A DNA stretch of 44,187 nucleotides, filler included, from Jimgerdemannia flammicorona (taxonomy: Eukaryota): NCBI GenBank assembly GCA_003990765.1. It is 2 parts of 2 records of this genome, joined end to end, with 100 filler letters (N's around TTAATTAATTAA, not from the genome) between each part and the next. Parts side by side here need not be neighbours in the genome. Positions count along the whole stretch, not along the records: positions 22,150 to 44,187 come from RBNJ01001345.1; 1 more part is not named here. The stretch is one strand, 5' to 3'. Shown here piece by piece: positions 8,442 to 44,054 of this stretch (within the stretch, counting starts at the first letter, position 1; every line of letters starts with the position of its first letter). Below the pieces are notes generated by a model. The model worked only from the letters and a program-made list of their open reading frames with translations. It ran no database searches and was not told the origin of the DNA. Both the position numbers and the translations under genes were made by a program.

Positions 8442-9113
8442 TATAATAAAATAAGATGCAATGAATGAGTAAATAGATGAGAAGTAATATATGATAAGTG
8501 ATTATGTGACTCAGTAATGATATCACTATCAATCAAGTATAATATATGATATATAAACAATGAATGTAATGAATGATATGAATGATGTAAAAAATGATAT
8601 CCAGCTTATCTCCAGCAATCAGCACCAGTAATCAGTACTACAGTAACTCAGATCATTGCTTAATAATTATGGTCCTAATTACAAAGTATTTTTGATTACA
8701 AACTATCTAACAAAGGTCAAGATCACAAATCTCACCATAGTTACCAAATTAGTCACTTATATTTAGTCAGAAATCATAGATCAAATTGTATAAATACTCC
8801 TCAGTTTCCATCAGTCTTTAATATAAGAATTAAGTTCTCCTTTATATATATATGTACATTCTTCTGAGTCTTAATAATAATACCTAAGTGACTCTAGTGT
8901 TTCTGACTAAACTCCAGAAGCCTAGCTAACTTCTGTCAGAACTGAGACAAGTATATAAATCATAAAGACTTAAGTAAATCTATTGAATCTGAATTCTAAG
9001 ATGAATTCAGTCTGTGCATAGCAAAGAATAAGTTTCTTACAACTATAGTTGATAAGAAGGACACTACTACTATAATTACTTTCAAGTGAGTACTTCCTCA
9101 AACTGAAGGCTTC
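8442..9113 (+). repeat. 5' LTR of the old Gypsy (3'-truncated)
   Basis: Colinear with 20249-20851 up to CTCAAACTGAAG(G/A)CTTC; TATAAATA near 8789. Confidence 0.85.
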
Positions 9114-9363
9114 ATTGCTGAGTAAAGTAGTCTAGCTAAAGAATTCAACATTGGGCTAAGAGGAGGAGTAGTTGACTAAGGATTTACTGGTGAAATTTAT
9201 GTCATCTTGTAAAATTTTGGAGACATCTCATTTGAAGTCAAAGCAGACCAAAGAATTGTCTAGACAATCATTGAAATAATTCATCAAAATCTCACTATTG
9301 AAGAAGTCTCTGAGCTCTCTCAGACAGATCATAACAAATAAGAGTTTATATCAATCAATAAAT
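9105..9363 (+). pseudogene. dut: dUTPase remnant (motifs 2-5) in the old Gypsy
   Basis: EGFIAE*SSLAKEFNIGLRGGVVD*GFTGEIYVIL*N...DQRIV*...EEVSELSQTD. Confidence 0.8.
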
Positions 9364-14136: not shown

Positions 14137-14167
14137 GTTGGGGTCTTTGTTGTAACATTCCTTCAAT

Positions 14168-17100: not shown

Positions 17101-17828
17101 AGCTTGGCGAGGGTCTGGAGAGTCTGCGAGGCCTGGGTAGAGACCTGTGGCCAGAAGTCTGGCAGAGGGTTGGAATTGGTGAGGAGTGGGATTGGAATGG
17201 CCTCTGGCATTAGAGCAAATGGGTGAGGCAGTGGCTGCCCCCCAAGTTCTGGGTGGTGTGGTGGCGAGTCCTACAGAGGAATATGATGTTGAACTATCGG
17301 TCGGGACACTTGGTGGCCAGTGGAGTATTTAAGTGTGAGGATTGTTTCAATGTTGGTCAGGAGGGAGGAGTGATACAAACACCTGAACATTGGCTTGGCG
17401 AATGTGAGGTTTTGGAGAAGTTCTGGAGATGTATTATGGACTAGGTGGGGCTGGGTGCTATAGAGAGAAAGGGAGGGGGGAGATGGGGAGAGCTTCGCTG
17501 GAGACTGGTGGGTGGGGTTGGGGATGAATGGCTGACCCTTAGTTGGGCTTTGGCTATGTGGGTTGGGTTGGCTGGGCACTGGGTTCATGTCTTTGAAGAA
17601 GGGCATCAGGTCAGGGTTGGTGAAAAGGTAGCCCATTGGGAATGGTTGCTGTTGGACATTTTGAATAGCTGGTGGCAAGGATGGGGAGTGGGTGGGGGGA
17701 ACCACAGAGGTCTGGTGCAGTGTATATCTCAGAAGAGTAGTGGGAGGATTCGGGTCATTGGTAATTGGGTAGTGCTCAGGCAGGGGGAGGTTGAGGAGGG
17801 GGGGTTGGGTCCCCAGGGTATTGATTGA
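14168..17828 (+). pseudogene. LINE ORF2: apurinic endonuclease, reverse transcriptase and C-terminal CCHC
   Basis: SLNVN, LLQDVH, GGDFN, SRIDW, SDH (APE); HWQLNSFLL, EGERPTRF, PGEDGL, LDQEKAYDR, QGDPL, FADD, YLGI, GGLGL (L1/Tx1 RT); CEDC...EHWLGEC. Confidence 0.92.
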
Positions 17829-20248
17829 GGGTGGGGGAGATATTGTATTGTTAACAATATAGACTTCAGTAATAAAGGGCAGTCCAAGAGACTATAAAAA
17901 AAAAAAAAAAAAAAAACTATTATATCTGACCAAGATACCAAGTTTACAAGCAACTTCTAGAAGGTATTCTTCTCTCTCTATAGAACTAAGCTGAAGTTCT
18001 TTACTACTTACTACTCTTAGACTAATTGTCAGACCAAGTGAACTAATAGGACCCTCAAGCAGATATTCAGCATCTTCTGCTGTTACAAGTAGAATAATTG
18101 AGACAAGTATCTAGCCCATGCCAAGTTTGTCTATAAAAATAGCCAGCAAACCTCTATGAAGAAGACCTCATTCTTCCTGAAACATAGTCAATACTCAAGG
18201 ACCTCAAGTACTCCTGTGAAATTAGTAGTTCCAGCAGCTCAAGATTTGGCTAAGACTATTTCTGACTTTATGCAAATGATAAGAGATATTCTTATAGAAG
18301 TACAGGACTACCAGACTAAGTATACAAACTTAAAGTAAAGAGAAGTCTCCTATAATATTGGTGACATAGTTATGCTTAGAACAGACCATCTCTATCTAGA
18401 TACTCTGGTATAGTAACTATTCAAGAAACTCTATGCTTGAAGAATTGGACCCTATAAGATTGTGGAAAAAGTCAGAAAAGTCAACTACAAGTTGTAACTC
18501 TCTTATAATATTCAAGTATATCTGGCATTCCATATCAGCCAATTGGTAGACTATTATGAGAACTTATTCTCTGAGTATACAGTTCTACCACTATCCCTAA
18601 TTAGGATCAATGACTATGAGGAATTCAAAATTGAGAAAGTGTACTTAACCACAAGGTCTACAAATATGCCAAAACAGTCAAGTGGTTTTTCCTTATTAAG
18701 TGGAAAGGTTACCCCACCCATGATGCTACCTGAAAAAAAGAAGAAATGCTAAAGAATGTATAAAGCTCTTCAGGACTATATAGAAATACTCACCCCCAGC
18801 AGAGAAAGAAACTATAGCTCTAAAATTTAGAGTACATAGCAAAAGAAGAAGATATCATATTTATATAAGATATACAATACTGAATATTACAGAAAAAAAG
18901 AACAACTATAATTAATCAATAATAGAATACTCAGGCAAAGAACAACTCAGCAAGATACAGCAAAACATATTTGAACAATTCTATTTCACACCATCTGTAT
19001 CATCTCTACTGGAGAATGACAGATACTTCATATAGAACTTAAGAAAGCCAATGACATCAAAACCAATCAAAGTCTATCTACATGATAGATATTGTTATTA
19101 AAAATTATCTCAGATTATAAGAAATACTATTTCTGAGAGGTTTGAATCCCAGCCACAACAATAGGAGCCCTTGCCTTAGACAAAGATGGTTAGTCCTCAC
19201 AAATATATCAACAAGATAAAAAAAAAAAAAATGGACTAAGATCTATCCATTCTGTATAACTATATTTATAATATAGTGATATATTTAAAATTAGAATTTT
19301 CTCATATGACTAGTACATGTCCTGCTTACAGCAATAAGTCATACATTCTACTGGAAAATGTGATCAAATTAAAGTCATATCAGATAGATTAATAAATATA
19401 AATACCTTGGGCTGAAGCATACTACAACTTCCATCCCCCTCTTCTCTCTCTAAAGAAAAGATAAGATAAGAATGTCAGCTATCTGCTGCCAAATAGCCCA
19501 CTATAGCCAGCCTCTCTCAAGCCAGGTTGACCACCTTTTTGGACACATTCAGGTCACTATCCAAGGAAGGAACTGCTGCTCTAAGATCCTTAACCTCTTT
19601 AGCCAGGACCTAGGACAGTATGTCCTTGACTACTGTGAAGTCATCAAAAGGACCTACCTTGCTATCAGCTGCCTAGAAATCTAGTATAAATAAAAAATTG
19701 TCCATCAACTTCTTAATATATAAATGACCTACCTACTGATCAGACCTCAGACTGGACCAACCTAGTAGGTATAAGCAAAGACTAGATAAGAAGGTCTATC
19801 AAATTATGTACTATACACTCTTTACAATTTCCAATCTCAACTATGTACAACTGAAAGACTTTCAGAACCTCTCATTCTTTGAGATTGTTAAGCTGGAAAT
19901 CAAGATTATCCAAGAAGCCAACTTCTGGATTACTTTCAAATCCACTAATTATAAATCTCACTGGAGCTCTCTCTTATATAACAATCTAGACCAATGGCTC
20001 TAAGGTCTCTCTGATCTTTTTGAAGAACTGCCTATCTGAATAGATATTTCTAGGCATAAGGAATAAGAACTCAACTTAGATGGTCTCAATTATATTAGAT
20101 GGAGAACTCTTACTTCAATATCTATATTAGTTTAAGAACTATTTGTAGACCTCATTGACTTCTCTATCTTAGATATTGAGTCATCAGCAACTATCCCTCT
20201 AGCCACTAGAGGAGAAGATAATAATACTGATTTTTAAGAAGAGAAAGA

Positions 20249-22149: not shown

Positions 22150-22189
22150 AAAATGGCATTGCTGATGCTTTATCCCGCACTGATCTTCC

Positions 22190-25695: not shown

Positions 25696-26869
25696 ATATC
25701 TAGATAAGCTACTCAAGAATTTCTTATTACAGAGACTCTATATAGTATCTATCTCTTCTCTTATTATCTTATTTTCTATTATTAAATTTTATCTTAAGAC
25801 TATTTTAATAATAATCTTAAGACTAGAATTCATGGGCTCTCCTCTCCATAACTCTGACTCTGATCACATTATAAAGACCTCTCTTTTGGATAATCTCTTT
25901 GCTCTTTCTCTTTTTATTTATACTACTGATATAACTACTAGTAATTCTATATTTTCAACCTAGACCACCTACTCAAATAGACACAGATACAGATAAATTC
26001 TTATCTCAATATCCCCTCTAGCCTTGCCACCAGACATAACTGCTTTCTATAGTCTTCTATTTGAGTTATATTTCAATAGTCACAATTAGTACAAATATTC
26101 CAGTCTTGTATAAAAATATATCATTATATATCTGCCTGTATTCTGTAATACAGTCCTTAGTCTAGCATTATTTAGTATAGATGTTCAACCACAGACATAC
26201 TTATCATCTCAAGTTTTAATTTAATAATAATATACTAAAATTAGAAAAGAAGATAGATATGAGGAGAGAGAGAGAAATTAACTTGAGTGTTTAGATTTTT
26301 AAGGTCTAAAAGAATGTTTTGTATAAATCAGAACTTCATAAATAAGTCAGTAAGGTGAGAGGATAGAGAGAGATAAGGTAGAAAGAAGAACAAGAAATAA
26401 GAGATTAAGGTAAAATATATAGTATAGTATATATTGATTTTATTATATTGTGGAATATGGTAGAATAAAGCCTCATGACTCTTAACTCATTCAACTATAC
26501 AATGATACTATTATTAGACACTCAATGTCTCAGTCACTAATAATACTATTATTATATATATATATACTTGGAGGATGATATAAATTTTACTGACTTTAGA
26601 AGTTGAGAGTTTATAGCTATATTATGATATATATGATTAAAGTGAACTGTATAATATTAATCTGTATGAAATCTAGTATAATTATTTTCTTCTCCTTTTT
26701 AATAACTATTTGTATCTTTTTAAAAGTTTTATCTTAATCTATATTATCCTTCTTCTCTGTTATTGACTCCTTCAACTATATCCTATAGACCAATAATAAG
26801 AAGATAGATTAGATAATAGATATGAAATACTGAAAGCTATTTGAATCATATTTAGATATATATATATAT

Positions 26870-29800
26870 ATATTTTTTTTTATTTTTATTTTTTATAGTT
26901 ATATAGACTTCCACTTTATTACCAAACCATCTATAATATACAGTTAATATAAATATACTCCTCACCCAATCCTACTCAGAAATTTCTCTCTCTCTCTCAC
27001 TATTACCAAAACACTGCCAACCCCCCCACTATCTCCATCCTCCCCCCACTCTTTCTACAGATTATATTCACCAATTATTACCAATACCCTCCCCCAGTAC
27101 TTCCACCCCTCTACTACCAATTCAATATATCTAATATCAGCCACTCTTATTTAACTATCCTCATCCCCAAGAGCAACTGTTGATCCTCCTCAAATACAGA
27201 AAGCCAATGTCTGGTCAGTCTAATCCAAATTACTAGCACTCATCCTAATATTAGCCACTCATCTCCCAACCCCCCTATCAGCCTCCTCTGGAGGTCATCC
27301 CATCTCACTCCTACTACCAACTCTGGTGAGTACACCCCCAGCTACACCTCAATCTTTCTCCAAAAGTCCCCCATCACCTCATACTCCTCTAGTCAATATT
27401 CAGGAGTCTGTACCACCTCTCTCTCTTCTGCTCAATGTTCAGACACTTCTTGTACTCCCAGATATCCCTTTTAACCAAGTGGCCTATCTGATAGTTTAAC
27501 ATATTATTGTACTGTAAAACTCTCCACTATACTACCTGAACTTGCAGGGGATCTATCTTGCTGCCTGCTTGCCCTACTGCCAAATACTATTTCAGTCTCA
27601 CTTCTTGCCAATTCCCACTCCCTGCTATACCTCAGGCCACAGATCTCTCCCATATTCCCAAAGGCACTCTATGCCATCCTCCAAGCAAAAATCATCTACC
27701 AGTACTCCACTTAATAGAAGATAGTCCCACCTCTATATCTGGGGTCTCCATTTCTCCTCCCTCTCATTACCCCTTTATTGGAGACCAATATGGTATGCCC
27801 CATCAGCTACCCCCTACCAGAATCTTCTATACTATATCCTCTGACTTCTCTCTAAAGCCACCAGAGAAAGAAGATCCCCAGTCACACCATGGGGGGAGAA
27901 TTGAGCTTTCCACACCTACTATATAAGGGGAACCCACTCTCTGCCCCTCAACTTGCTCACTTCAGTGACCATACTTTCAAGTAGTGAAGATGCTTGGAAA
28001 AATCTATTAGACCCAGGCCTCCCCTGTCCACTGGCCAGATCAACACCTCTCAACCAATCTGACTCTGTCACTCTATCTATATTCAGGTTCTGGCCATCTT
28101 TAGCAGTTACTTGACCACTCATGCTGAAATGTCCAAGTGGTATCCTAGATATTACAGCTTAGGTGGTCAGTTTACATTCATCACAGTTACTCTTTCTACC
28201 AGAGAAATATAGTGACCACCCCACCCTAAGAGAGTACTTCTCTACTCAGCCAACCTCTGCTTCCACCACTCATATGGCAGTAAGGAGCCACATACTGAAA
28301 AGTAAATTTCCAGATAGTGAATAGCCTCTCCTACTGAGACAATTGTTTCAATCATATCCCCACCTACTATTCCTCCTCTCAGCACCAAAGTCTCACACTT
28401 ATATCAGTTGAGCTTGATACCTAAGTACTCTTCATATCACTCTACTGTACCTTACAGAGCTGTAATATCTACAACTGACCCCAGTCTGACCATATTATCA
28501 GTAAAGGCCCCCACCTTCCAATTAATCTCTAGTATGTCCAACTCTCCCACCTTATACTGTATTTTATCCAAAAGTGGCTCCAGAGATAGTATATATAGAA
28601 TTGGCAACAGTTGACCCCACTGCAGCACTCCTCTGCCCAGAGGGAAAGAAATCCCTCTGTGTCCATTCAATATAATTACTGCCTGACTCTCTTCCAACAG
28701 ACTGACCAAGGTCCACCAGGCTCTATGGGGGACTCTAATGTACTTTAGCACCCTTTTCAATTACACTCACCAGACTCTATCATAGGCCTTCTTCTGATTT
28801 AAGAAAACCAGTCATTCATCCACCCCAGCAGTACAAACACTCTCAATAATATCATACACTCAGGCTATCTCATCTCTGATCAGATATCTCCCTATGAATC
28901 CTCTTTGCTCAGCCTCCAGAACTTATTACACTACTCCCTGCAGCCTAGCCACCAGTACCTTCATGACTAGTTTGTAACCCATATCCAGAATCATGATTTT
29001 TTCCACTCTTCCTACCTCCTTTTATTCTTAAACAGCAGAGCCACAAGACCGAAGCTCTGCTCTCCAATCCATACCCCAGAGTCTATTACTTCATTGTATA
29101 TTATTATTATTTTCTCCAGGGCCAACTTGACTCCTACAATCCTTTTCCAGAAATTCCATTATAAGCTATCCTCCCCTGCCACAGTTCCAGAGCTTGTTGT
29201 CTACAGAACTTACCAAATCTCCTTGCTCTAGACAGCAGCACCAAGATTGCCTAAGTCTGCTGCCAAATCAGGGTACTATTCCTCCAAGTACCTGTCAATG
29301 TCCAATACTCCCTCACCACTATCCTTCTCACTTCACAGGTATTCCCACTGCTTGCTCAACTGGTCCAGAATCTCCAGTGTCCCAACAACCAACTCTCCAG
29401 CCTCATTCAAAATCCCCTCCCACTGCTGCCAGACTCTTCTTGTCTATAACAGCTGTGACAAAAACTTGATAGGTTATTCCCCCTCTTCCAATCTCTGCCA
29501 CTATAGCCTGGCCACTATGCTCTTAACCTGTAGGTCCTTCTTCTGATACAGAATGCCCTTCAGCTCCTCTACCTCCAGCCTGGTCTATTATATATGCCAA
29601 TCTCCCTCCTCTCTTTTATTTGTCTGATCTGCCCAAGTCACTAACAACCTCACCAACCTCTAGGAGGCCCACCTCATTTGCTTTTTCCTCTGAGTACCCT
29701 GCATCCTTCTTGCCTCCCCCCAATACCATTGTGCCTCAGATTTCAATCATACTAAGTGATCCCTAATCCCCAGTCCTGCTGCTCTCCAACCAAGAATCCT

Positions 29801-32800
29801 AGAGCTAATGTCTATCTAGTGCTCCTAATGAGTCAATTTAATCCGGATTGGATTCGGATTGATTCGGATTGAATCCCATCCAGATCAACTCAGATGGGAT
29901 TCGAATCCCATCTGGATGGATCAACCATTGTTTTGATTTCCAAATTAGACAATTAAATGTTTACATCAATAACTTGATGAATAATCATCCAAATTTGATG
30001 ATCTTGGTGTCATTTGAAAGTCCTTAATATGGCCTATCTAATGATACCAAGAACATTGAAATTGGATTATGTGTTGCTGAGTTATGAAGGAAACCATCTG
30101 AATCGCCGATTTTGGAAATTCTTCGATTTGCCAATTTTGGAAATTTCGTCAAATGTAACGTTTTCTTTAATATCTCAGCAACACGTAATCCGATTTTAAT
30201 GTTCTTGGTATCATTAGAAAGGCCTTATTAAGGGCTTTCAAATGACACCAAGATTATCAAATTTGGATGATTATTCATCGAGTTATTGATGTAAACATTT
30301 AATTGTCTAATTTGGAAATCAAAACAATGGTTGATTCAAATCCATCTGGATGGGATTCGAATCCCATCCGGATTGACTCGTTTGGAGCACTATGTCTATC
30401 ACTTATGCCTCCTATAAGGAGGCCTAACCTAGCAAAGAGATATTCAGTTGCCAATATCCAGGCCCCTCCCCACCTCTCCCAAAATACCCCCCTCCTAATG
30501 GACCCCAGTAATCTGATCACAGACACCATAAAGTCTCTAAATTTCTCCAGATATCAACTCTCCAGCAATCTGCAGTCAATATCCAGTTAATCCTCAAGCC
30601 TAGCCCTGCCACCTAGTGGAAAAAGACCCTATAATCCCCACATCCAAGTCTCCCAGCATCTATTAGAGAGCTCAAACATTCGACTTCCTCTCAGGCTTCT
30701 ATACCCCCACTCCTGTCTGTCATCTCTCTACCCCTATTAGTTCTGTCTATCTTTCCATCATATATTATGTTAAAGTCTCCCCCTAGACAATCAATCTCTG
30801 CCTCCACCAATACTCCAGACTCTTATAGCTCTCAGATCTATTCCATCCTCTCCCCTCTTTCTACTGGACAATAATATAACCCAACTATCAGAGACCTCTA
30901 GCCTGGCCTCTTCCAAACTCCCACACTTCCCTACTCCTCTAATGTCTAATGTCTCCAATGTCCCCCTTACTCTTCCAAATCAGAATACCCACACAACCTC
31001 ATCAAACAGCCACACTACTTCATTCTTTCATCCAATCCTGACTATCTAAGTCTCTATCATGCCTAATATCCTATAGTAAGAACAAGTCATCTTCTATCCC
31101 CTTCAGCCATCTAAAAAGATATTTTGCCACCTCACTGCCTCTTATAGCCCATTGACATTCAGATATAAGATTCTAGTTATACTGTTTATATTGAATAATA
31201 TTGTTTAAATTATAGCTATATACTCTATAATTCCATACTCACAGCATCTCTAGCAATATCCAGGTCCCTATCTACCTCCAGTTCATTTGTCTCTCTATAT
31301 TGAGCCTTCAATATCTCCAAGATCTCCTGACAATCCTCACTATCCACAGCCTTCATCTCTGTACAGTACTCTTCATACACCATCTGTCACTTTGCCAGCT
31401 CTTTTCTTAGGCCCCATATATAATCAGCTCTATTATTTGCAATCACTAGAAGTGCTGCCTCTCTGATGATATTGATCTGATATACCTTAGCCTCCAACAA
31501 TACCACTATTATATCATCCTGGAGTTTCTGTGGCACCTCTTCACTATATATGATTTTCCCCCAATGTCTCTCACTTAGTATCTGGAAGTCCTCTCCCCCC
31601 AGCTACTCAGCTGTCATATTCTTAAGTATTTTCTACAGCCATTTCTCCTTGACCTCAGTCTCTGCCACTCTCTAGACAACTCTCATCTCTCCCTCCACCT
31701 ACCTCCCCTCTGCATTCCTCCTTGCTGACTCATCCCAATCCTCCTCTAGAATATTCTGCAATTTGTCATCAACTCTAGCCCCACTTGGTACCCCATACTG
31801 AGGGTCCTCTCTCTCTGCTATCTCTGCATCCTCCACAATAATACTCAGCCCTGCACCCTCTCCCTCTCCTGGGATCCCCTCTGGTGCTGCCCTCTTCTAT
31901 TCTACCCAGACACTTGCCTTCAATTAAGCCATTTCAGTGGTGGTCCCCCCAGCTGCCCCCCCTCTCAACTTAGCTAGCAGCTCTTTCTGAATGTACCTTC
32001 CCTGTGCTCTCTTCCAGGCTGCCTGATCTAGCCACACCTTGCTATTGACAATCTCTACAATCATCTTGGTCTCATACTTCTTTCAGGCCAATCTTCTCCT
32101 CTCCACAGCTCTAGCCAGATCCTCTATACCTTCAGTAAGTCCTCTTCTTCCTCTAGCATCTCTTTCACTTACAAGATCTTATACTCTACAGGTTCCCACT
32201 TAAGAACTGCCAGCCAGTCCCTTGCCTTCTCTGTATTCTTCTTACCTGCTAGCTATACCTTGATGTCCACATCTCTTGTCCTAAATTTGGTACCTTCCCA
32301 GACCCTAAACCTAACATCCACAATCTTCTCATACTCCTTGACAGTCTCTACAATCAACATCTGGCCATTTCTTTCAACACCATAGGAACATCCAGTACTG
32401 TTAGCTGCACTACTCAGGAGTCCCAGTGCAAGCACTGGGACATAGAGATTACTACTCCCCCTACTATCACTCTCTTCTCCATTCTCTCCAATAGTATCTC
32501 CTCCTTCTCAAAGCCTATCTCCACCACTTTTAGTCTCTTCAAAACTTCACCAATGTGGCCCCCTTCATCTTCTGAGTCAGAAGCCTAAGAATCATCCTTG
32601 CTGTCACTACCAAGCCTCAGAAATATAATTTGATAGTGAATTCTGACCTCAATTTCTTAAGTAATAGTGCTGTCACCAGGTCTGTCACATCATCTGTCAG
32701 GTCTCTGAGCCTTGTGTCCACCCTCTGTCCAGATTTACCATCAATTATTACATCTGGATTTTTTTCTAGGTTAGTAGTCCTCTTGCCATCAGCAGTCTCA

Positions 32801-33428: not shown

Positions 33429-35469
33429 TGTAAGAGGGTTACTTTTTAGGATAACTGTTATGTAGTTCTGGAAGGGTTTTCTGGAAGTTCGGGATATTCT
33501 GGAAGACCGTTTTCTTATGGTCAAGGTCAATTTCATATGGAGTATGTCCTCTACGCTTATTAATTTCAAGATTGGGTTGACGTCTCAACCAAAGTCCTTT
33601 TCCGGACTAGTTCTGGATGTTCAGGATTTTCCGTATTTCAGGAAGTTCAGGAAACTAAGACCAGCTTAGTTGGATTGGCATATCGCTGCAGACAATACCC
33701 AATTAGGAAATTTCGTGGCAGGGTTGGGAGTGGGACCTAACAGGGAGCGGATTTACTTAAGAGTGATTTGTGGGTTATGGAATAGATTTATTTGCTATTC
33801 ATGATATTGCTATACTAGGAGTATTTGTGTGAAGGGGTATTATGGGGAAGTATTCAGGAATGTTCTTGTCTGTTCGAGTCTCAGATTCTGAGGTCTGGGA
33901 GAGGGGGTATTTATACTAGTGAGGGGCTATCTGGACTATGCTAGATATGGATGTAGCACTAAGTGCCTTGCTGAGTCGGAATGCAGTCACGTAGTACAAG
34001 TGTGATCTGACATGTCAAGAGATCATCTGACTGCTGAGTCAGTTCACAGTTACATCGTACAAGGCTAATCTATCTATACTATGACTGCTAGACTATTTAT
34101 AGGTCTAGGCACTATCTGGGTAGTCTTCGATGACATCACCATCAATTGCATCATCTCTGATGAAGTAGTCGTCTAGGAAGAGTGGTTCGTGGATTACTTC
34201 TCCTTGTTGGCTGAGGTAGTAATATATTGGGACTTCATCTCCGTCCCATAGGATAGTATCATCTGTCTCGTATGCTGGATAAGGTGTTGGTAGGCGAAGG
34301 ATGGGTGTATTGTCTTCACTTTCATCAGATCCACTATCTGCGTACCTTCTATAGGTTACAGCACTATGAGTCGCGGGGTTGTAGTAAGCTGGCGGCTGTG
34401 GTTCAAGTTGCTTGTACTCGGGTGGTGTGGTTGGTTCAATCTCGAGGGTTGTCTGGAGATACAGATTGTGTTCTCTGGTCTCTTCATTGTAGTTGAAGTA
34501 GTCAGGGGTGAATGCAGGTTAGTATTCGTGCCAGTGGTCATTGTCCCAATAAGTCTCGTATGCAGTTATGAACTGTTGTAAGTTCATTGGCAAGGTTGGC
34601 GGAGATCCTTGGCTAGAGGTCATATCAGCGTCAGAGGGGTTGTTGTCTTCTGCTTTGTCTTCATCGAAGTGGATTATATCATAGACGTCCTTCATGGCAT
34701 ATCTGACTTGAGGCATTTGCAGGATATGGTCATCGGGGTGCGGGAAGGTTCTGTCTGTGGTTTCGACATACTCGAGGTACTTGTGGTTGATTTCTTGTAT
34801 CATGTCATCGATTTGGCCGTAGGACAGGGTAGCAACCATTTCGCTGGTAGTGACTCGGAGGCGGGGAATAAAGGTGTTGTACTCATAGAAGAGTTCTCGA
34901 TGTTTGCGGGCGATGAGCTTCTGGTGTTGAGACATCTGGATAATGTCTGTATCATGGTGGTGTTCGACCATGTCTTCCAGGAGGCAGCCGATCTGGTAGT
35001 AGCTTGAGATTTGTCTGATTCGGTGTGCCTCGCTAAGCATGTTCAGGGCGTTCCATCGGGCTTCCACGAAGTAGAGGGGTGCCAGGCTATGGATATTCAT
35101 GAGGGGCAGAGGGGGTGTGGCTCGGTTGACAATGGCATTCCAAATGTCAGTGCGGATGCAGTTGTAGATCTCAGTGGTCATGTTGGTGTGTTTGGAAGTT
35201 GGGGTTGTTGTTTGTTTTGGTTTTCTGATTCGACGCATCTCGGTGCTCAGTATATATGCATTTGGTCCTGATTGGTAAGGTTCCGTTTGTGTAGATCTTG
35301 TATTCCGTGACTTCATATTGACTCAGCTTTGTGTACTGTGACTTCGGTTTGACTCAGCTTCATGATCAAGCAGGTGATTTCCAGATTTGTTCAGAGGTCG
35401 CGTGTGATTTCAGTGGCTTGTTCAGAGGGTGATGTGTAATTTCGGTGGCTTGGAGGTTGTGCGCTTACA
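33429..35469 (-). repeat. 3' LTR (2041 bp)
   Basis: Colinear with 41991-44054; TATA at 33908-33915; preceded on the minus strand by a PPT. Confidence 0.93.
34105..35316 (-). CDS. LTR U3-encoded protein of unknown function: 265-aa ORF plus an in-frame acidic 137-codon extension after a TAA at 34519
   Basis: Open frame 35316-34519; the same frame stays open to TAG at 34105; a homologous frame is present in the 5' LTR. Confidence 0.7.
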
Positions 35470-35484
35470 ACTCTCCCCTTCTTA
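35470..35484 (-). promoter_or_regulatory. Polypurine tract
   Basis: Minus-strand AAGAAGGGGAGAGT directly before TGTAAG. Confidence 0.9.
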
Positions 35485-35896
35485 GCTTTTGACGTTCTCG
35501 TCGGGGCCTTCTAATTTGTTCTAGTGTTGTTACACCGTTTGGGAGGTCAAAAGTCTGGTAAGGTCCATTTTCTCAGAAAGTGGCATGCTCGTAGTACAGT
35601 TGCCTAACGTGTTGGATTCACACGTTAAAGGCTCGTGTGTTCAATGCCATGTGCTGGAAGTGATTCTGACGTCGTTCACTGCTGGAGAATTTCCTCTAAG
35701 GAATCTTCTTAAATGTCTACGCCTTGTTTCCCACCAGTGGTACAGAGAGAATAGGCTTGCTTTCAGTTTTTGCTATTTTTCCAGGGATTCGGTAGTCTTG
35801 TCTTGTTTTGCTGAGTTCTTGATTTGGTTCGTGATAATTATAATGTTTGGAAGGATAATATATAGTGTGTGTGGATAGGTGCAGAGTATTTTGGTT

Positions 35897-38800
35897 CTAG
35901 TTGTTTAAGGACTCATATTCCTGAACTAGGTCAGTAGCATTCTGGAGGTTGGTCTTGGGTTCCCAGGTTGCATCGTGGATCGGGTAACCTTTCCATTTGA
36001 CAAGGTACTCGGAATGGTTCTTGTTACCACGTTTGTTGAGGATTTGTTCAACTTCATATTCTTCTTGGTCATTTATGATGACAGGTGCAGGTGGTTTGGT
36101 GGTCCGGTTTGGAAATAGCTTGTCATCATTGTCATTGTATCGCTTGAGACGTTGAACATTAAAGACTGGGTGAATCTTAATAGTGTCTGGTAGTGCTAGT
36201 TTGTAGGAGGTTGGAGAGACTTGTGCAATGATTTTGAATGGTCCAATAAACTTGCTGTTCAGCTTTGTAGATGGTCTGTGCTTGAGGTTGTCAACTCGGT
36301 ATCCTCTGATATCCAGTAGGACTTTTTCTCCAATGTCAAAGGTTTCTTCTCGGCGGTGTTGGTTAACATACTGTGACTGTTGTTCTTGAGCTCGGGATAG
36401 ATTCTCAATGGCAATCTGGCTTAAATTGCACATTCGGAGTAGGAATTCTTCAACTGCTTCAACTGTGGAGGGTTCTTCAGTGGTTCGGATAAGTGTCAAA
36501 GGGGTGTTTGGATTTTGTCCAGTATTGGCGAAGAATGGGGTCATTCCAAGAGAGGCTTGCTTGCTGTTGTTGTAGGCAAACTCGACTGCGGTGAGATGTT
36601 CATGCCAATCATCTTGTCTGTATGAGACATAGTTCCTTAGCATTTGTTCCAGAGTTCAGTTCATTCTTTCAGTTTGGCCGTCAGTTTCAGGGTGAAAGGC
36701 TGTGGATAGTGCAAGTTTCATTCCAAGGTGTGCATGGAGGGCTTTCCAAAAGTGGCTGGTGAATTTCGGATCTCGGTCACTAACAATGATCTTGGGAAGA
36801 CCATGATAGTGGAAGATGTTGTCAAATAAGAGTGTGGCTATGTCTGGTGCTGTTGCAGTAGTAGTAGTAGGCACAAAGTGAGCTTGTTTGCTGAGATAGT
36901 CCACAAAGACAACAATTGCATCTTTCCCGTTCTTTGTTCGGGGTAGTTGCATGATGAAGTCCATAGAGATTTGTTCCCAATTTGCAGATGGTACTGGAAT
37001 AGGGTGGAGTAAGCCAGGTTTTGCTAGTGTTGAGGACTTGTTTCATTGGCAGGCATCACAGGAAGTAATGTAGGTTTTGAGCTGATCTGCCATGCGGGGC
37101 CAATAGAAGTTTCGGGAGATAACTTCATAACATTTATCAAATCCTAAATGTCCAGCTGTAGGGGCATCATGATATTCGAATAGGATAGTCCTTCGGAGGT
37201 CTCGGTTGTTTGGAACATACAATCTGTCCTTGTAGTAGATAGCATTGTCCTTGAGTTGGTATTGATTATACCGGGTATGCTTGTCAGCATCATCATTGTT
37301 CAGGATTTCTCGGAGTGCTTGAGCTTCTTTATCATCAACATATGCTGCGATGATTTGTTCCATAATAGTGTTGGTAACCAAGGTCAGAGTTTGGATAACC
37401 TCTTCGATTAGTGGTCTGGAAATTGCATCGGCAACAATATTTTCCTTGCCAGGGCAGTACTGAATTTCGTAGTCAAAGTTGGTGAGGACTTTCATCCATC
37501 TAGCTTGCTTTCAAGAAAGGGTAGCCTGTGTCTTGATATTGACTAATGACTTGTGGTCAGTCAATACAGTAAAGTGTGCTCCTTCTAGGTATGGTCGCCA
37601 TTTAATCAGAGTGTCTACGATGGCTAGCATTTCCTTCTCGTGAGTTGCGTAGTTGATTTCAGCATCATTGAATTTGCGGGAGTGGTAGACCACAGGGTGT
37701 CCTTCTTGCATGAGTACTGCTCCAAGAGCTAGGTCAGAGGCATCAGTGGTAACTTCATATGGTAGGGCAGGGTTTGCCGCTTGAAGTACAGGTGTGGTTA
37801 TCAGGGCATCTTTCAGTGCTTGAAAGGTGGTATCTTGTTTGGGTCCCCAAGTTACAAGATTGTTGAAGTTTTTCTCTTGTTTCATGGTCCAGGGTTGTTC
37901 TTGTTTCTTACTGTGCTTAGTCATTTGGGTGAGGGCAGTAGCAATTTTAGCAAAGTTGGCAATGAATCGCCTGTAATAGTTTGCTAATCCCAGGAATGAC
38001 TGGAGGTCTTTCAGCTTCTTCAGTGTGGGCCAATCTTTGATTACAGCGATTTTGCTGGGGTCCACTTTGATTCCATTTGGGGTGACAATGTGTCCAAGGA
38101 ATTGAATTTCTTTCAGAAGAAATTCGTACTTGCTGAGTTTTGCAAAGAGTCGGTTTTCTCAGAGTTTCAGTAGTACTAGTTCAAGGTGTTCAAGATGTTC
38201 CTCCAGGGTTTTGCTGAAGACTAGGATGTCATCAATGTAGACAACAACGAATTTGTCCAGGTATGGATGCAGAATAGTATTCATCAGTGTCTGGAAGGTT
38301 GCTGGGGCATTAGTTAAGCCAAAGGGCATAACCAGGAACTCGAAGTGTCCATAGCGAGTTCGGAAGGCTGTCTTGTAGATGTCTTCTTCTTTCATGGCAA
38401 TTTGCCAGTAACCATTTCGCAGGTCAAAAGAGCTCATGAATTGTGGGTTGGTAAGTCTATCGAATATTTCATCAATTCTTGGTAGTGGGCAACAGTTCTT
38501 GATGATCTGTTCATTGAGGTCGTGGTAGTCAATGCACATTCGTAGGTCTCCTCCTTTCTTGACAACGAAGAGGACTGGTGCACCATAGGGTGATACACTG
38601 GGTCTGATGAATCCTTATTCTAGGAGTTCGTCAATTTCCTTCTTGAGTGCATCAATTTCTCTCGGAGACATGTGGTAGATTGACTTGAAGGCTGGTTTGG
38701 CGTCTGGGATAGTCTTGATGGCATGATCTACTGCTCGTTTGGGAGATAGGCCTTTTGGGAGCTTCTTTGGGAATATGTCTTGGAATTTCTGGAGTAGTGG

Positions 38801-41800
38801 TCTGACATGGCTGTCAACTTTGGAAAAATCTTCTTCAGAGTTCTCGGGTTCTCCTTTGGATGGTCGGATGGAGATGGTGAAGAGAGGGCATTTCTTGGCC
38901 AATTTCTTGAGTTGTAGCTTGTTGATGTAGGTGATCTTTGGTCCAGGGTCACTAGAATTGAGTGGGTCCTTTTCACCTTGTAGTTTGAAGTTGTGGCATC
39001 CTTTCTTGATGGTCAGAGAATGGTTTACCCAATCGATCATGGGGTTCTCTTGTTTTAACCATGGAGTCCCAAGGATGATTTCATTGTCTAGAAGTGGTAC
39101 AATTTGGAGGGTAACATGTACTCGGTAGTCACCAATTCGGAAGGGTAGATTGCGGACTTCTTTGCTAATAACATGTGAGGTTCCATCTGCTGTAGCAACT
39201 GCTTGAGTTTGCTGTACTGGGGAGGTGAAGACCTTGAGTCTGTTGGCTGTCTCCTCATTGATGAAATTGCCTGAGGCACCACTGTCTATTATAATCTTGA
39301 CAGGTGCTCCGTTGACAAAAGCCTTAAGGGTGAGCAGTTTGTCTGATCCAATGGTGGTGATTTCAGTTGTAGGAGCCTTTCTTCTGTTGGTTCTTCTTTG
39401 AGCTAGTTTGTTGACACAAGAGAAGCAATCATCAATCATTCAGGAAGAGTACATTCCAATACTATGAGGGCATTGGCCACTTGGTACATATCCATCTTCT
39501 ATCTTCTTGTAGAATTGTTCTTCTTTGCTCACAGTAGATTGGGCTGGGGCCTTGTTTGATGAGCCAAATCCTTTGGATCCTCGGATGGTGGGTAGTAGTT
39601 CAGGGACTTTCTTGACTGTCAGGGTTGACTCGATTTTTTCGAATAGGATCTGGGTGATGCAGAAGCCAATAGGGATCTTGAAGGGTGTCCAACTGTGATT
39701 TCGGATGAGGACAATGATTTCGCCTGTGTAATCTTCGTCGATGACTCCTCCTTCTACTGAGAGTCCTTTCAGTGCTAGGCTGCTGCAACAGCATATTCTT
39801 CCAACATGTCCTTCAGGGATTTGGATACTGATTCCTGTGTAGACTTGTTTGACTTCTCGGTTGGAAACTGTAGCTTCTTTGGCTGCATACAGGTCATATA
39901 TGGCTGCTTTTTGACTTCCTTTGGTTGGGGCCTTAGTAGTTTGTCTTAACTTGACAAAGTCTAGTGTTCTGGTGGTCAGGTTGTTGAGGTGGTGCAGAGT
40001 GGTGACAGTTGCTCGGGTTGCTGTTCAGGGTTTTCGGTTTGGGCAGACACTGGCCATGTGTCCTGTCTTTTGGCAATAGAAGCATGCTCCACTTCTTCGA
40101 AGTTCATTTCTTTCGCCTTCAGTAAGTTTCTTGAAGGTACTTGGCTGAGTGGGTTCATGATTTCTGGGTGTCCATGAGGTGGATGTGGAGGGAGCTCGAG
40201 ATGCTTCATGCTTGGGTTCTTCTTTCTTGGTCCAAGTCTTTTCCTTGTTGTTGAATTGCCTTTGGGGCAGAATTGGTCTGGCTGTTAGAATTCGCTTGAC
40301 CATGGTCTTGATTCTTGCCAGGCACCATTGTTGGTGGTCACAACCAACTGGGTGGCCTTGTTCTCGGATTTTTCTAGTAAGCCATTCAGGCAGGGTATCA
40401 AATAAATGGTCTGCTCTTGTACCATTTCATGCTTCATCATTGGCGATATATCCTAGGCTAACAGTGTTCAGGAGTGACTCGAGTTTTGTACAGAAGGTTT
40501 CGAATTCTTCTTTGCCATGTACATCAAATTTGAGGTTGCAGAGTTTTACTCAAGATTCAGCGATCATGGTTTCACTGCAATATTGAGCAATCATGAGTTG
40601 TTTGAGTCCAGGGGCTGCAGGATGGGCTCCATATCCTGGGCCATTGTTTGCTGCATTCTGGGCAACTACTGCAGGTCAGGTATCCCATGTGAGGGGTTTT
40701 TCAGGAAGGGTTCACCACCATTCTTCGGCAGGTCCTTGGAAGAATGTAACAACTCGGCGGACATAGGCTGTAGTTGTAGCAAAGAGTTGTTCCAGAGTGT
40801 AGTCTTGATTGTTTGTCAGAACGCGATCAGCAACTCGCTCATTGGTCCATTGATTGGCTTCAAAGTTGGTGTCAACTATGCTAATGAAGCTTTGGACTTC
40901 TTGTGCAGTACCATTGAAGGTAGGTAGGCTCAGATTTTTGGTAGGTTGGGTCTGTTCAGCTAAGGCAGTAATGGTTGCTGCCATTATAGCTACTTGGGCT
41001 GTGAGGTCTAGAATCTGTTGGTTCGCCATATTGATTGCTGGAGGTGGTTGGACTGCTGGTAGTGGTGTTACTAGTACTACTTGAGATACTGGTTCAGAGT
41101 GTGATGGGGTTCTTTGGGTCTGTGTAAGTTGCTGGAGTAGTAGTTGTAGATCTGGAGTGAGGGCTTGATAGATAGCTGTTTGTTGCTGTGTAGGTGTATT
41201 CTGTCCTGATGGGTGTGTGTCTCCTTCAGTGGTGTATCCGGGATCAAATTCGGTGAGATACTCCTTCTCTTCTTCGGTTTGGTCCCCGTGTAATTGGGTT
41301 TGCTCGGCGTCAAAGTAGACAGAATCAGTTGTATATCTGATTTCAGATAGACTTAATTCAAAGTCAAGTTCAGGTTTGGTATTGGTTTCAGATTCAGGTA
41401 GAGCTGTAGCAGGGCCTTCTTCAGGTTCAGGGTCAGGTAGTTGATGAAGGGTTTCTCTTGCTTCTTCTTTGAGGATATGGCGGGCCTTGCTGTTCTGGAA
41501 TCGGTAGTATAAGGCAGTCTTGGTCCTGGTACAGTGAAAGTTGGTAGAGTTGAGCCACATGGCTACAGAGGCTTGGGCTTCATGAGGAACTAAGGCTAGA
41601 AAGACTGCTGCTGGTTGTCCTAGGTCGCTCGGATTTGTGGAGCTAACAAAACTCTTGTTGAGAAGAGTAAAGAAGGCTTCAATAAGACCTTCTTCATCTT
41701 GACTTGCTGGGTGTAGTGCAAGGAGTTTGGTGAATAGGGTTTCACCTATTTGCTGGTTTAACTTGAGTACTTCTTTCTTTGAATGAAGTTTATCTCACTT

Positions 41801-41900
41801 GTTGTAGGTGTGGAGGTCAAATTGTCCTTGTATGTCAGGTTCAATTCTCTCTAGATTATCAGATGGTTCGGATAAATTCCAGTTCAGAGGTTGGGCTTTA
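35897..41900 (-). pseudogene. gag-pol: Gag-dUTPase-protease-RT-RNase H-integrase-chromodomain polyprotein, one frame with point stops
   Basis: LPTFNG, CFYCQKTGHMASVC (NC), dUTPase motifs, [93 protein letters not shown]. Start position approximate. Confidence 0.95.
39557..39965 (-). CDS. dut: dUTPase domain between the NC zinc knuckle and protease (missed by the ORF track)
   Basis: AAIYDLY (motif 1), GRICCCSSLA (2), GGVIDEDYTGEI (3), CITQIL (4), RGSKGFGSS (5). Confidence 0.93.
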
Positions 41901-41975
41901 TACCAACTTGTAGGAATTTGCAGAGGGGTTTATAGCGGGGTGAGGAAGCATCTTGAAGTGGAATTGGATTGTAAA

Positions 41976-41987
41976 CCACTACTACCA
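41976..41987 (-). promoter_or_regulatory. Primer-binding site, probably initiator tRNA-Met type
   Basis: TGGTAGTAGTGG 3 nt from the 5' LTR end; resembles the TGGTAGC.. of iMet PBSs after C>T decay. Confidence 0.6.
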
Positions 41988-41990
41988 AGT

Positions 41991-44054
41991 TGTAAGAGGG
42001 TTGCTTTTTAGGGTAACCATTACGTAGTTCTAGAAAGGTTTTCTGGATATTCTGGATGTTCTGGAAGACCGTTTTCTTATGGTCAAGATCAATTTTATAT
42101 AGAGTACATCCTCTATGCTTATTGATTTCAAGATCAGGTTGACGTCTCAACCAAAGTCCTTTTCCAGACTAGTTCTGGATGTTCAGGATTTTCCGTATTT
42201 CAGGAAGTTCAAGAAACTAAGACCAGCTTAGTTGAATTGGTGTATCGCTGCAGACAATACCCAATTAGGAAATTTCGTGATGGGGTTAGGAGTGGGACCT
42301 AACAGAGAGCAGATTTACTTAAGAGTAGTTTGTGGGTTATAGAATAGGTTTATTTGCTATTCATGATATTGCTATACTAGGAGTATTTGTGTGAAGGGGT
42401 ACTGTGGGGAAGTGCTCAGGAGTTGTGTTCGGATTGTTCAAGTCTGAGATTCTGAGGTCTGGGGGAGGGGGTATTTATACTAGTGAGGGGCTATCTGGAC
42501 TATGCTAGATATGGATGTAGCACTAAGTGCCTTGCTGAGTCGGAATGCAGTCATGTAGTACAAGTGTGATCTGATATGTCAAGAGATTGTCTGACTGCTG
42601 AGTCAGTTCACAGTCATGTCATATAATGCTAATCTAACTATACTATGACTGCTAGGCTATTTATGAGTTTAGGCACTGTCTGGGTAGTCCTCGATGACAT
42701 CACCATCGATTGCATCATCTCTGATGAAGTAGTCGTCTAGAAAGAGTGGTTCGCGGATTACTTCTCCTTGTTCGCTGAGGTAATAGTACATTGGAACTTC
42801 ATCTCCATCCCACAGGATAGTATCGTCTGTTTCGTATGCTGGATAAGGTATTGGTGGGCAAAGGATGGGTGTATTGTCTTCACTTTCATCGGATTCACTG
42901 TCTGCATACCTTCTATAGGTTACAGCACTATGAGTCACAGGGTTGTAGTAAGCTGGTGGCTGTGGTTCATGTCACTCGTACTCAGATGGTGGGGTTGTTG
43001 GTTCGATCTCTAGAGTTGTCTGGAGGTACAGATTGTGTTCTCTGGTCTCTTCATTGTAATTGAAGTAATCGGGGGTGAATGCGGGTTAGTATTTATACCA
43101 GTGGTCATTGTCCCAATAAGTCTCGTATGTTGTTATGAATTGTTGTAAGTTCATTGGCAAAGTTGGCAAAGTGATCAGGGTTGGCAGAGATCCTTGGCTA
43201 GAGGTCATGTCGGCATCAGAGGGATCATTGTCTTCTGCTTCATCTTCATCAAAGTGGATTATATCGTAGATGTCCTTCATGGTATATCCAACTTGGGGCA
43301 TTTGCAGGATTTGATCATTGGGGTGTAGGAAGGTTCTATCTGTGGTTTCGACGTACTCGAGGTACTTGTGGTTGAGTTCTTGTATCATGTTATCGATTTG
43401 GCCATAGGACAGAGTAGCAACCATTTCGCTGGTAGTAACTCAGAGGTGGGGAATAACGGTGCTATACTCATAGAAGAGTTCTCGATATTTGCAGGCAATG
43501 AGCTTCTGGTGTTGAGACATCTGGGTAATATCCGTATCATGATGATGTTCAACTATATCTTCCAAGAGGCGGCCGATCTGATAGTAGCTTGATATTTGTC
43601 TGATTCGGTGGGCCTCACTAAGCATGTTCAGAGCATTCCATTGGGCTTCCATGAAGTAGAGGGGTGCTAGGCTATAGATATTCATGAGGGGTAGAGGGGG
43701 TGTGGCTCGGTTGACAATGGCATTCCAAATGTCAGCGCGGATATGGTTGTAGATCTCAGTGGTCATGTTTGTGTGTTTGGAAGTTGTAGTTGTTGTTTGT
43801 TTTGGTTCTCTGATTCGATGCATCTCGGTACTCAGTATATATGCATTTGGTCCTGATTGTTAAGATTCCATTTGTGTAAATCTTGTGTTCCATGACTTTG
43901 TATTGACTCAGCTTTGTACACTGTAACTTCAGTTTGACTCAGCTTCGTGATCAAGCAGGTGATTTTCAGATTTGTTCAGAGGTCATGTGTAATTTTGGTG
44001 GCTTATTCAGAGGGTGATGTGTAATTTCGGTGGCTTGGAGGTTGTGCGCTTACA
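41991..44054 (-). repeat. 5' LTR (2064 bp) with an interrupted copy of the U3 ORF (42669-~43893)
   Basis: Colinear with the 3' LTR; TATA at 42472-42479; ORF pieces 43440-43823, 43086-43424 and 42669-42938 are all in one frame. Confidence 0.93.

Follow-up and report, generated by a model that had tools for sequence, protein, structure and literature searches.

A dUTPase domain between nucleocapsid and protease in a dead Ty3/Gypsy chromovirus of Jimgerdemannia flammicorona

Retrotransposons have been reported to carry a dUTPase domain only rarely (Rodriguez et al., 2017; PMC5408684), and the fungal elements that do differ in where they place it. For example, PosPlaTy3-3 of Postia placenta has been reported to bear a dUTPase at the amino-terminus of Pol, and dUTPase-bearing elements have also been found in Phanerochaete chrysosporium, in addition to Tmt1 of Tuber; variable dUTPase positions were described in this set and independent acquisitions were suggested (Novikova et al., 2010; PMC2864245). 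Another example is the dUTPase of betaretroviruses (MMTV p30, M-PMV), which is an NC-containing trans-frame product encoded beside the protease, PR (Hizi and Herzig, 2015; PMC4531489). That the enzyme is a trimer, that the Asp in motif III is catalytic and that uracil incorporation is lowered are established background in these accounts (PMC4531489; PMC2864245).

The locus described here lies in the genome of J. flammicorona (assembly GCA_003990765.1), within a window (the whole stretch of DNA analysed, 44,187 nucleotides in two joined parts) of which positions 22,150 to 44,187 come from RBNJ01001345.1. Positions 44054..33429 of the minus strand are read here, with a probability of about 0.85, as a full-length but dead Ty3/Gypsy chromovirus with a dUTPase domain inherited within a retrotransposon lineage. 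Its features are the following.

41991..44054, minus strand: 5' LTR of 2064 nt, with a TG start and a CA end, detected as a repeat by self-BLAST
41976..41987, minus strand: putative primer-binding site, a TGG... stretch 3 nt past the 5' LTR, read from the sequence
40028..41560, minus strand: gag region, with an ATG at 41560, the frame being open from 41698, and four in-frame TGA codons
40037..40087, minus strand: CCHC zinc knuckle of the nucleocapsid (Pfam PF00098, zf-CCHC, E=5.9e-5, 23.4 bits against a cut-off of 20.8)
39557..39934, minus strand: dUTPase domain (Pfam PF00692, E=1.3e-31), all five motifs recognisable
39416..39523, minus strand: conserved Cys-x-His ... Cys-x2-Cys linker between dUTPase and protease, interrupted by a TGA
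39050..39322, minus strand: retropepsin-type aspartyl protease (Pfam PF13975, E=1.8e-13; PF08284, E=6.2e-12)
38171..38560, minus strand: reverse transcriptase, RT (Pfam PF00078, E=4.5e-29), with YIDD at 38239..38228
37523..37849, minus strand: RNase H domain (Pfam PF17919, E=4.1e-33; PF17917, E=8.1e-30)
36689..37207, minus strand: integrase (IN) H2C2 zinc domain and catalytic core (Pfam PF17921, E=5.5e-20; PF00665, E=7.2e-10)
35909..36331, minus strand: integrase C-terminal SH3 domain and chromodomain (Pfam PF24626, E=2.4e-18; PF00385, E=3e-18)
35471..35488, minus strand: polypurine tract immediately upstream of the 3' LTR, read from the sequence
33429..35469, minus strand: 3' LTR of 2041 nt, with TG..CA ends and 90.4% identity to the 5' LTR

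A single minus-strand frame holds gag, the CCHC knuckle, dUTPase, protease, RT, RNase H, integrase and chromodomain, in this order according to Pfam, and ends at a TAG (35899..35897). The arrangement PR-RT-RNase H-IN with a C-terminal chromodomain and a gag CCHC knuckle is that of a Ty3/Gypsy chromovirus, and in the RT tree the RT of the element groups with chromoviruses. The protease carries its DSGA at 39286..39275 (minus strand), and the gag region can be aligned with that of relative P0016, the N-terminal 328 aa of gag giving no Pfam match. No env-like ORF is present between integrase and LTR, where the pol stop and the 3' LTR lie 430 nt apart, with non-coding sequence in between. The LTRs are flanked by GTACC and CTTTT, respectively, without a target-site duplication; this mismatch gives no support to a simple single insertion, and the missing duplication could be explained by decay or by recombination between copies. 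Inside the 2-kb LTR sits an ORF of 265 aa, which may be a genuine gene. Elsewhere, 63 ORFs of at least 90 aa occur at positions 1-33500, and only two of them have Pfam matches, both to retroelement domains; in the window as a whole, no tRNA genes, Rfam matches or host-gene matches were detected.

A preliminary description of this DNA had placed the dUTPase at 39557..39965, and the Pfam search recovers nearly exactly this span: PF00692 matches 39934..39557 with 109.4 bits against a cut-off of 22, covering profile positions 4-128 of 129. The coding strand is the minus strand; read on the plus strand, 39557-39965 is full of stops. The match takes up residues 31-156 of a stop-free segment of 194 aa (40024..39443) in the frame starting at 41698. 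All five motifs are recognisable in the gag-pol frame, as had been claimed, namely AAIYDL (motif I, 39907..39890), GRICCCSS (II, 39802..39779), GVIDEDYTGEI (III, 39748..39716), ITQILFEK (IV, 39658..39635), and RGSKGFGSS (V, 39583..39557), all on the minus strand; but motifs I and II are substituted at conserved residues, and the window copy does not have five motifs with their key residues intact. In alignment A1, which includes 11 relatives, the Gly found in motif I of nine of them is replaced by Ile in the window copy, and the motif II Arg common to all 11 is replaced by Cys. Because intact relatives keep those residues, the failure belongs to this copy and not to the family; a copy that has lost both of them is by itself uninformative on activity.

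In a phmmer search of the PDB, the window dUTPase found its best match in 3f4f (1.4e-23), and cellular-type dUTPases (3f4f, followed by 3lqw at 1.5e-22) were much closer than lentiviral ones (FIV 1f7d, 2.6e-14, and EIAV 1duc, 2.8e-11). No recognisably betaretroviral entry appeared among the best 60 of the 67 PDB matches, whose entry titles give no organism. Relative P0014 (47% identical) was modelled with a pLDDT of 96-98 in the dUTPase core, and Foldseek with this model returned 3lqw (E=1.9e-14, TM 0.93 normalised by target length), with human, yeast and Arabidopsis dUTPases also on top; the beta-barrel fold of dUTPases is thus predicted, on this relative rather than on the window copy. Cellular trimeric dUTPases (yeast 3f4f, Entamoeba 3lqw, human 1q5h, and Arabidopsis 4oop) stand as the best matches in both sequence and fold, and share length and the five motifs with the window domain; unlike them, the latter is embedded in a retrotransposon polyprotein and mutated at conserved residues.

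The fusion in frame with gag and protease, as proposed in the preliminary description, holds to the extent that the frame is kept from gag to protease, but this frame is not open in the present copy, since a TGA lies on either side of the dUTPase (at 40027..40025, between knuckle and dUTPase, and at 39442..39440, between dUTPase and protease). There are 11 in-frame internal stops (10 TGA and one TAA) and no frameshift. Neither the inactivated state of the copy nor the damage to two of its motifs figured in the preliminary description. Differences between the two LTRs are transitions in 173 of 195 cases and fall at CpG in 82 of 195, and the observed/expected ratio of CpG in the window is 0.27. 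Transition mutations, many of them at CpG, would have inactivated this copy at a later time, producing the 11 premature stops and replacing conserved residues in two of the dUTPase motifs, I and II. An alternative code in which TGA is a sense codon, suggested by the 10 TGA among 11 stops, was considered and rejected, one stop being TAA; it is also countered by the CpG depletion, by the transition-dominated LTR divergence, and by the 92%-identical intact copy P0001, which has ordinary sense codons at both of the window stops within its span.

Apart from P0001, metagenome data contain a decayed copy 79% identical to the window element, and the dUTPase-then-protease order recurs in nine or more remoter proteins whose dUTPase segment is 34-50% identical. 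In other relatives, the dUTPase comes after the protease, after the integrase, or in Copia elements. The order and the linker following the dUTPase are also present in P0014, P0016, P0025, P0037, P0044, and P0211, with gag similarity in P0016. Seven of the top 120 relatives of P0001 are polyproteins with a dUTPase, and in five of these the dUTPase precedes the protease. Among named elements, those closest in RT come from green algae and plants, in a search that scored only the 8000 candidates with the most words in common and in which multi-copy plant proteins predominated; protease matches in the Atlas were a mixture of Streptophyta and Basidiomycota, and a weak Atlas lead pointed to Mucoromycota (score 0.81).

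With its dUTPase between gag/NC and protease in a chromodomain Gypsy element, the window element is of the same type as PosPlaTy3-3, to which it is likened by published description and not by sequence; neither a Cys/His linker after the dUTPase nor a 2-kb LTR with an internal ORF figures in what is available of that description (PMC2864245). The preliminary description had made novelty depend on this domain order not yet being catalogued for the clade, and it had been, for chromoviruses (PosPlaTy3-3, PMC2864245). The dUTPase layout is genuine but known from fungal elements, which leaves the element largely ordinary. Variable dUTPase positions are also common to the published fungal set (PMC2864245) and to the metagenome relatives found here. 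Betaretroviruses resemble the window element in their nucleocapsid-dUTPase-protease order, their five-motif homotrimeric type of dUTPase, and the proposed exclusion of uracil (PMC4531489). In these viruses, however, the enzyme belongs to a gag-pro trans-frame product, whereas the window element and its intact relatives have a single frame; the window element has, moreover, a chromovirus-type RT, no env, and a dUTPase closer to the cellular than to the listed retroviral structures. Neither a gag-pro frameshift NC-dUTPase, nor a retroviral RT, nor env was found in it, and the single retroviral RT in the RT tree has a branch length of 10. The order of NC, dUTPase and PR was rightly given in the preliminary description as betaretroviral, and its statement that dUTPase is sporadic among Ty3/Gypsy elements agrees with the published rarity (PMC4531489 and PMC5408684, respectively); its wording of a dUTPase directly after the knuckle and before PR is correct as to order, but the domain begins 34 codons after the CCHC knuckle and ends 78 codons before the protease domain. 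Finally, Juno, Vesta, and TelKA of bdelloid rotifers are likewise LTR retrotransposons with a dUTPase, and Juno has an extra zinc knuckle after it that recalls the Cys/His linker of the window element; they differ in being animal elements with the dUTPase between protease and RT and without a chromodomain (PMC5408684).

The stops that flank the domain in this copy are the only point for regarding it as a chance resemblance, or as a host dUTPase gene that merely adjoins a retrotransposon. Such a reading is negligible. It is refuted by a match of E=1.3e-31 across 125 of the 129 profile positions and by the intact relatives P0014, P0211, P0215, P0221, and P0259, which encode the fusion as one protein, and it is at odds with a frame shared with gag and protease with no intron-like break. 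More serious is the independent capture inferred in the preliminary description, according to which the window family took up a host dUTPase by itself, in an event separate from those in betaretroviruses and in other Gypsy elements with a dUTPase. The greater closeness to cellular-type eukaryotic than to lentiviral enzymes in the PDB is in line with it, independent acquisitions have likewise been proposed for fungal elements (Novikova et al., 2010; PMC2864245), and P0221, with its Cys/His motif before the dUTPase instead of after it, hints at more than one insertion event despite a similar gross order. The dUTPase trees (147 rows by a quick method, then 65 rows by a quick and a careful one, all without taxon labels) also scatter the dUTPase-before-protease rows, with six label changes for nine rows; in both, the window domain stands apart from the other linker-bearing rows and joins P0282 and P0139 (proteins of 160-163 aa) at an unstarred branch with SH-aLRT 80-84. 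However, their alignment has only 142 columns, the starred branches require at most one origin, and the number of captures cannot be read from these trees because their resolution is too poor. The backbone of the RT tree is likewise without resolution; the window element falls in its unresolved base, outside a weak cluster (SH-aLRT 82) of seven other dUTPase-bearing elements. AU tests neither rejected nor proved a single origin; p was 0.362 for the linker-bearing lineage and 0.178 for the ten dUTPase-before-protease rows taken together. Against a separate capture stand also the gag similarity, domain order, and linker that the window element has in common with relatives of the wider lineage at 34-50% identity. 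Independence from retroviruses is plausible, but independence from other chromoviruses is not supported as stated, and the proposal as a whole is unlikely. In the inherited-domain reading preferred here, the dUTPase would have come by descent within a lineage of retrotransposons in which this order was already established, no capture having been made by this copy.

As for function, comparing the window copy with L001 gives a dN/dS of 0.09 over 119 codons of the dUTPase, 0.12 over 77 codons of the linker, and 0.13 over 232 codons of the protease region. From the values for dUTPase and protease region it follows that the domain is under selection in the active lineage, and purifying selection on it is as strong as on the protease region. 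The active lineage would produce a single gag-pol polyprotein that runs from capsid and CCHC nucleocapsid through dUTPase, the small Cys/His linker and protease to RT, RNase H, integrase, and, last, the chromodomain. The dUTPase may then be packaged with Gag-Pol into the virus-like particle, and would form a homotrimer, as is usual for the enzyme, while still part of the polyprotein or once released by the protease. There it would convert dUTP into dUMP and pyrophosphate, so that less uracil would be put into the cDNA by the reverse transcriptase and the cDNA would escape uracil-excision damage. This uracil-limiting role, already proposed in the preliminary description, is a standard inference and fits the dN/dS of 0.09. 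Strong purifying selection does not tell which function is selected, and the domain might instead be kept for a structural or regulatory, non-catalytic role, as has been reported for the truncated dUTPase-like peptide of bovine immunodeficiency virus; a retroviral dUTPase-related gene has been described as needed for replication although its protein has no dUTPase activity (PMC4261571). Unusual residues beside motifs II and IV in the window family, namely Cys-Cys ahead of the motif II Arg position in the window copy and L001, and Phe-Cys ahead of the IAQ or ITQ of motif IV in three copies, would suit such a role. Nevertheless, intact relatives have not lost the Asp of motif III, the Gln of motif IV, or the GFGS of motif V, the Arg-Ser of motif II is present in 11 of the 11 relatives of A1, and the P0014 model predicts a full-length dUTPase fold, all of which makes a non-catalytic role quite improbable.

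The linker after the dUTPase is common to P0001, P0014, P0016, P0025, P0037, P0044, P0064, P0086, and P0211, and has a pLDDT of 87-95 in the P0014 model. Its dN/dS of 0.12 indicates constraint equal to that on the protease. No Pfam family covers it in four linker-bearing relatives searched up to E=5, and among the proteins compared the Cys/His module is confined to dUTPase-bearing elements. We suggest, very tentatively, that the dUTPase of this lineage is accompanied by a small zinc-binding module not described before (Cys-x-His, about 13 residues, Cys-x2-Cys). If real, this module might anchor the dUTPase to the protease or to nucleic acid, and it would be a functional parallel, of separate origin, to the betaretroviral NC-dUTPase fusion.

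With the layout published and the copy dead, no new question is raised by this element, and only its Cys/His linker and the ORF in its LTR may be worth pursuing further. The finding adds one family and many metagenome relatives to the known dUTPase-bearing Gypsy elements, and the selection on their dUTPase supports the view that control of uracil matters for retrotransposon cDNA synthesis outside the vertebrate retroviruses.

The span 39557..39965 is the dUTPase domain of a Ty3/Gypsy chromovirus that is present at full length (about 10.6 kb). The plus-strand translation of this span is riddled with stops, so the feature belongs to the minus strand, where one frame starting at 41698 spans the whole element; the domain order was obtained from Pfam scans of the stop-free segments of that frame.

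Features of the element (all minus strand)
44054..41991, 5' LTR, 2064 nt, direct repeat with TG..CA ends
40087..40037, zf-CCHC (Pfam E=5.9e-5)
39934..39557, dUTPase, PF00692 (Pfam E=1.3e-31)
39523..39416, zinc-knuckle-like linker, Cys-x-His ... Cys-x2-Cys, between dUTPase and protease
39322..39050, aspartyl protease, DSGA at 39286..39275 (Pfam E=1.8e-13)
38560..38171, reverse transcriptase (RT; Pfam E=4.5e-29)
37849..37523, RNase H (Pfam E=4.1e-33)
37207..37046, integrase H2C2 (Pfam E=5.5e-20)
36976..36689, integrase core (Pfam E=7.2e-10)
36331..36137, Tf2-type SH3 (Pfam E=2.4e-18)
36058..35909, chromodomain (Pfam E=3e-18)
35469..33429, 3' LTR, 2041 nt, direct repeat with TG..CA ends

The dUTPase identity given in the preliminary description is confirmed by the PF00692 match (109.4 bits, the cut-off being 22; aligned over positions 4-128 of the 129-position profile), and its in-frame order of CCHC knuckle, dUTPase and protease is reproduced by the Pfam order along the single frame. 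The N-terminal 328 aa of gag have no Pfam match and align to the gag part of the relative protein P0016. A primer-binding-like site beginning with TGG lies 3 nt past the 5' LTR, and a polypurine tract is found immediately upstream of the 3' LTR; no target-site duplication was found in the 5-base flanks (GTACC vs CTTTT).

This copy has been inactivated by transition mutations, many of them at CpG sites, because the mismatches of the LTR pair (90.4% identical) are mostly transitions (173 of 195, 89%), 82 of the 195 lie at CpG, and CpG is depleted (observed/expected 0.27 in the window and 0.45 in the element). The element frame holds 11 internal stops (10 TGA and 1 TAA) ahead of the terminal TAG at 35899..35897, and no frameshift in the 5.7-kb coding frame; one TGA (40027..40025) separates the knuckle from the dUTPase and another (39442..39440) the dUTPase from the protease. 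In P0001, a 92%-identical copy carrying dUTPase, protease and RT, sense codons stand at both window stops within its span. Across the whole element (44054..33429), the combination of stops without frameshift and 9.6% LTR divergence dominated by transitions resembles the outcome of a mutational burst of the C-to-T type (methylation-linked or RIP-like) more than that of gradual neutral ageing. All five dUTPase motifs reported earlier are recognisable, although two carry substitutions relative to an alignment with 11 relatives: motif I has Ile where 9 of 11 have Gly, and in motif II the Arg shared by all 11 is replaced by Cys. Motifs III and V agree with the relatives' consensus, and motif IV retains its invariant Gln.

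Selection was estimated by the Nei-Gojobori method against L001, a 79%-identical related locus that is also decayed (stops and a frameshift). The dN/dS ratio was 0.09 for the dUTPase (119 codons), 0.12 for the linker (77 codons) and 0.13 for the protease region (232 codons), with dS of about 0.8-1.0; most of the divergence between the two copies therefore arose under purifying selection on the dUTPase that was no weaker than the selection acting on the protease region. The AlphaFold model of the relative P0014 (28-row alignment) reaches pLDDT 96-98 over the dUTPase core, and its top Foldseek match is Entamoeba 3lqw (E=1.9e-14; TM 0.93 normalised by target length), followed by human, Naegleria, yeast and Arabidopsis enzymes, all eukaryotic trimeric dUTPases. 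By sequence, the window dUTPase is nearer to the cellular type (3f4f, 1.4e-23) than to the lentiviral enzymes of FIV (1f7d, 2.6e-14) and EIAV (1duc, 2.8e-11); no betaretroviral entry was identifiable in the best 60 of 67 PDB matches, whose titles carry no organism. The role proposed earlier, limiting uracil incorporation during reverse transcription, is in our judgement likely to be right; the enzyme would act as modelled on the trimeric and retroviral dUTPases described in PMC4531489.

The close relatives all come from metagenome or assembly records. The dUTPase-then-protease order recurs at 34-50% dUTPase-segment identity in P0014, P0016, P0025, P0044, P0211, P0215, P0221, P0256 and P0259, and P0221 is an intact 1767-aa polyprotein (gag, CCHC, dUTPase, protease, RT, RNase H, integrase, chromodomain). 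Of the top 120 long relatives of P0001, seven carry a dUTPase, before the protease in five and between protease and RT in two (P0266, P0277). Other arrangements include protease-dUTPase (P0005, P0058, P0122), chromodomain-dUTPase (P0090), RNase H-dUTPase (P0117) and, in an endogenous retrovirus of a frog (P0007), a dUTPase at the C-terminal end of Pol; the domain is also present in nine Ty1/Copia-type polyproteins. At a limit of E=0.001, a whole-library search returned 19,264 relatives of the dUTPase, with tandem triple dUTPases as top scores. The window also contains a second element with the same layout (9093..10313, plus strand); it belongs to another family, is much more decayed, and lies in surroundings of about 32% G+C (8001-10000) and CpG observed/expected of 0.0 (8001-12000):

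9114-9362, plus, dUTPase remnant, 77% identity with P0016 across 83 aa
9633-10313, plus, protease, after the same Cys/His linker

The novelty suggested earlier does not stand, since a dUTPase at the Pol amino-terminus has been described in the Postia placenta chromovirus PosPlaTy3-3, together with a carboxyl-terminal one in PosPlaTy3-4 and one between protease and RT in PosPlaTy3-5 (Novikova et al., 2010, PMC2864245). These authors propose that such domains were acquired independently, and cite prior cases from Phanerochaete chrysosporium and Tuber melanosporum. In rotifer LTR elements the dUTPase, termed a rare domain among retrotransposons, lies between protease and RT, and in Juno an additional zinc knuckle comes after it (Rodriguez et al., 2017, PMC5408684). 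Betaretroviral dUTPase has been reported to resemble that of fungal chromoviruses (Llorens et al., 2009, PMC2774666), and a preprint on the Entomophthora muscae genome lists dUTPase among enriched TE-related Pfam families (10.1101/2023.09.13.557621).

The dUTPase trees (147 rows quick; 65 rows quick, then careful; 142 columns) are poorly resolved. The window dUTPase groups with two 160-163-aa proteins (SH-aLRT 80-84, unstarred), and six label changes are required for the nine rows with dUTPase before protease, only one of them forced by starred branches. A single clade was not rejected by the AU test, either for the six linker-bearing rows (p=0.362) or for all ten dUTPase-before-protease rows (p=0.178), a group picked after the first tree was seen. 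In the RT tree, the seven other dUTPase-bearing chromoviruses form a weak cluster (SH-aLRT 82) and the window sequence falls at the unresolved base; the RT closest to it (58% identical) belongs to an element without dUTPase. More than one insertion event is hinted at because the Cys/His motif follows the dUTPase in 11 proteins and precedes it in P0221. Independence from retroviral dUTPases is plausible, and independence from other chromoviruses is possible. The earlier interpretation is partly supported: its identity, order and probable role for the domain stand, and the independent capture is a candidate explanation.

A further reading frame lies within the LTRs:

34519..35316, minus (same strand as gag-pol), 265-aa ORF wholly inside the 3' LTR
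43086..43823, its broken counterpart in the 5' LTR

None of 1000 Markov-1 simulations produced a stop-free stretch as long as the 267 aa of this ORF (the longest was 195). No Pfam family matches it, and its nearest Atlas clusters are Mucoromycota proteins (score 0.81, weak). Elsewhere, an inverted fragment at 6759..7130 (plus) shares 77-79% identity with the inner end of this element's LTR and probably derives from a related family, as a solo-LTR or a truncated copy. Strong opposite GC skews mark 12001..18000 (about +0.43 to +0.51) and 26001..32000 (about -0.34 to -0.43), which are linked by three inverted stretches of weak similarity (70-73%); the remnant of an RT is present at 15759-16343. 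They look like two old, oppositely oriented copies of another retroelement, each strand-biased in composition.

The linker pattern, sought by regular expression, occurs in 12 of 289 proteins, all dUTPase-bearing (P0001, P0014, P0016, P0025, P0037, P0044, P0064, P0086, P0159, P0160, P0211, P0221). It matches no Pfam family and is modelled at pLDDT 87-95 in P0014; no description of a post-dUTPase Cys/His linker of chromoviruses was found in the literature searched, which is weak evidence of absence. The element is a newly found dead copy, dUTPase-bearing chromoviruses being already known; its conserved Cys/His linker and the 265-aa LTR ORF may merit follow-up.
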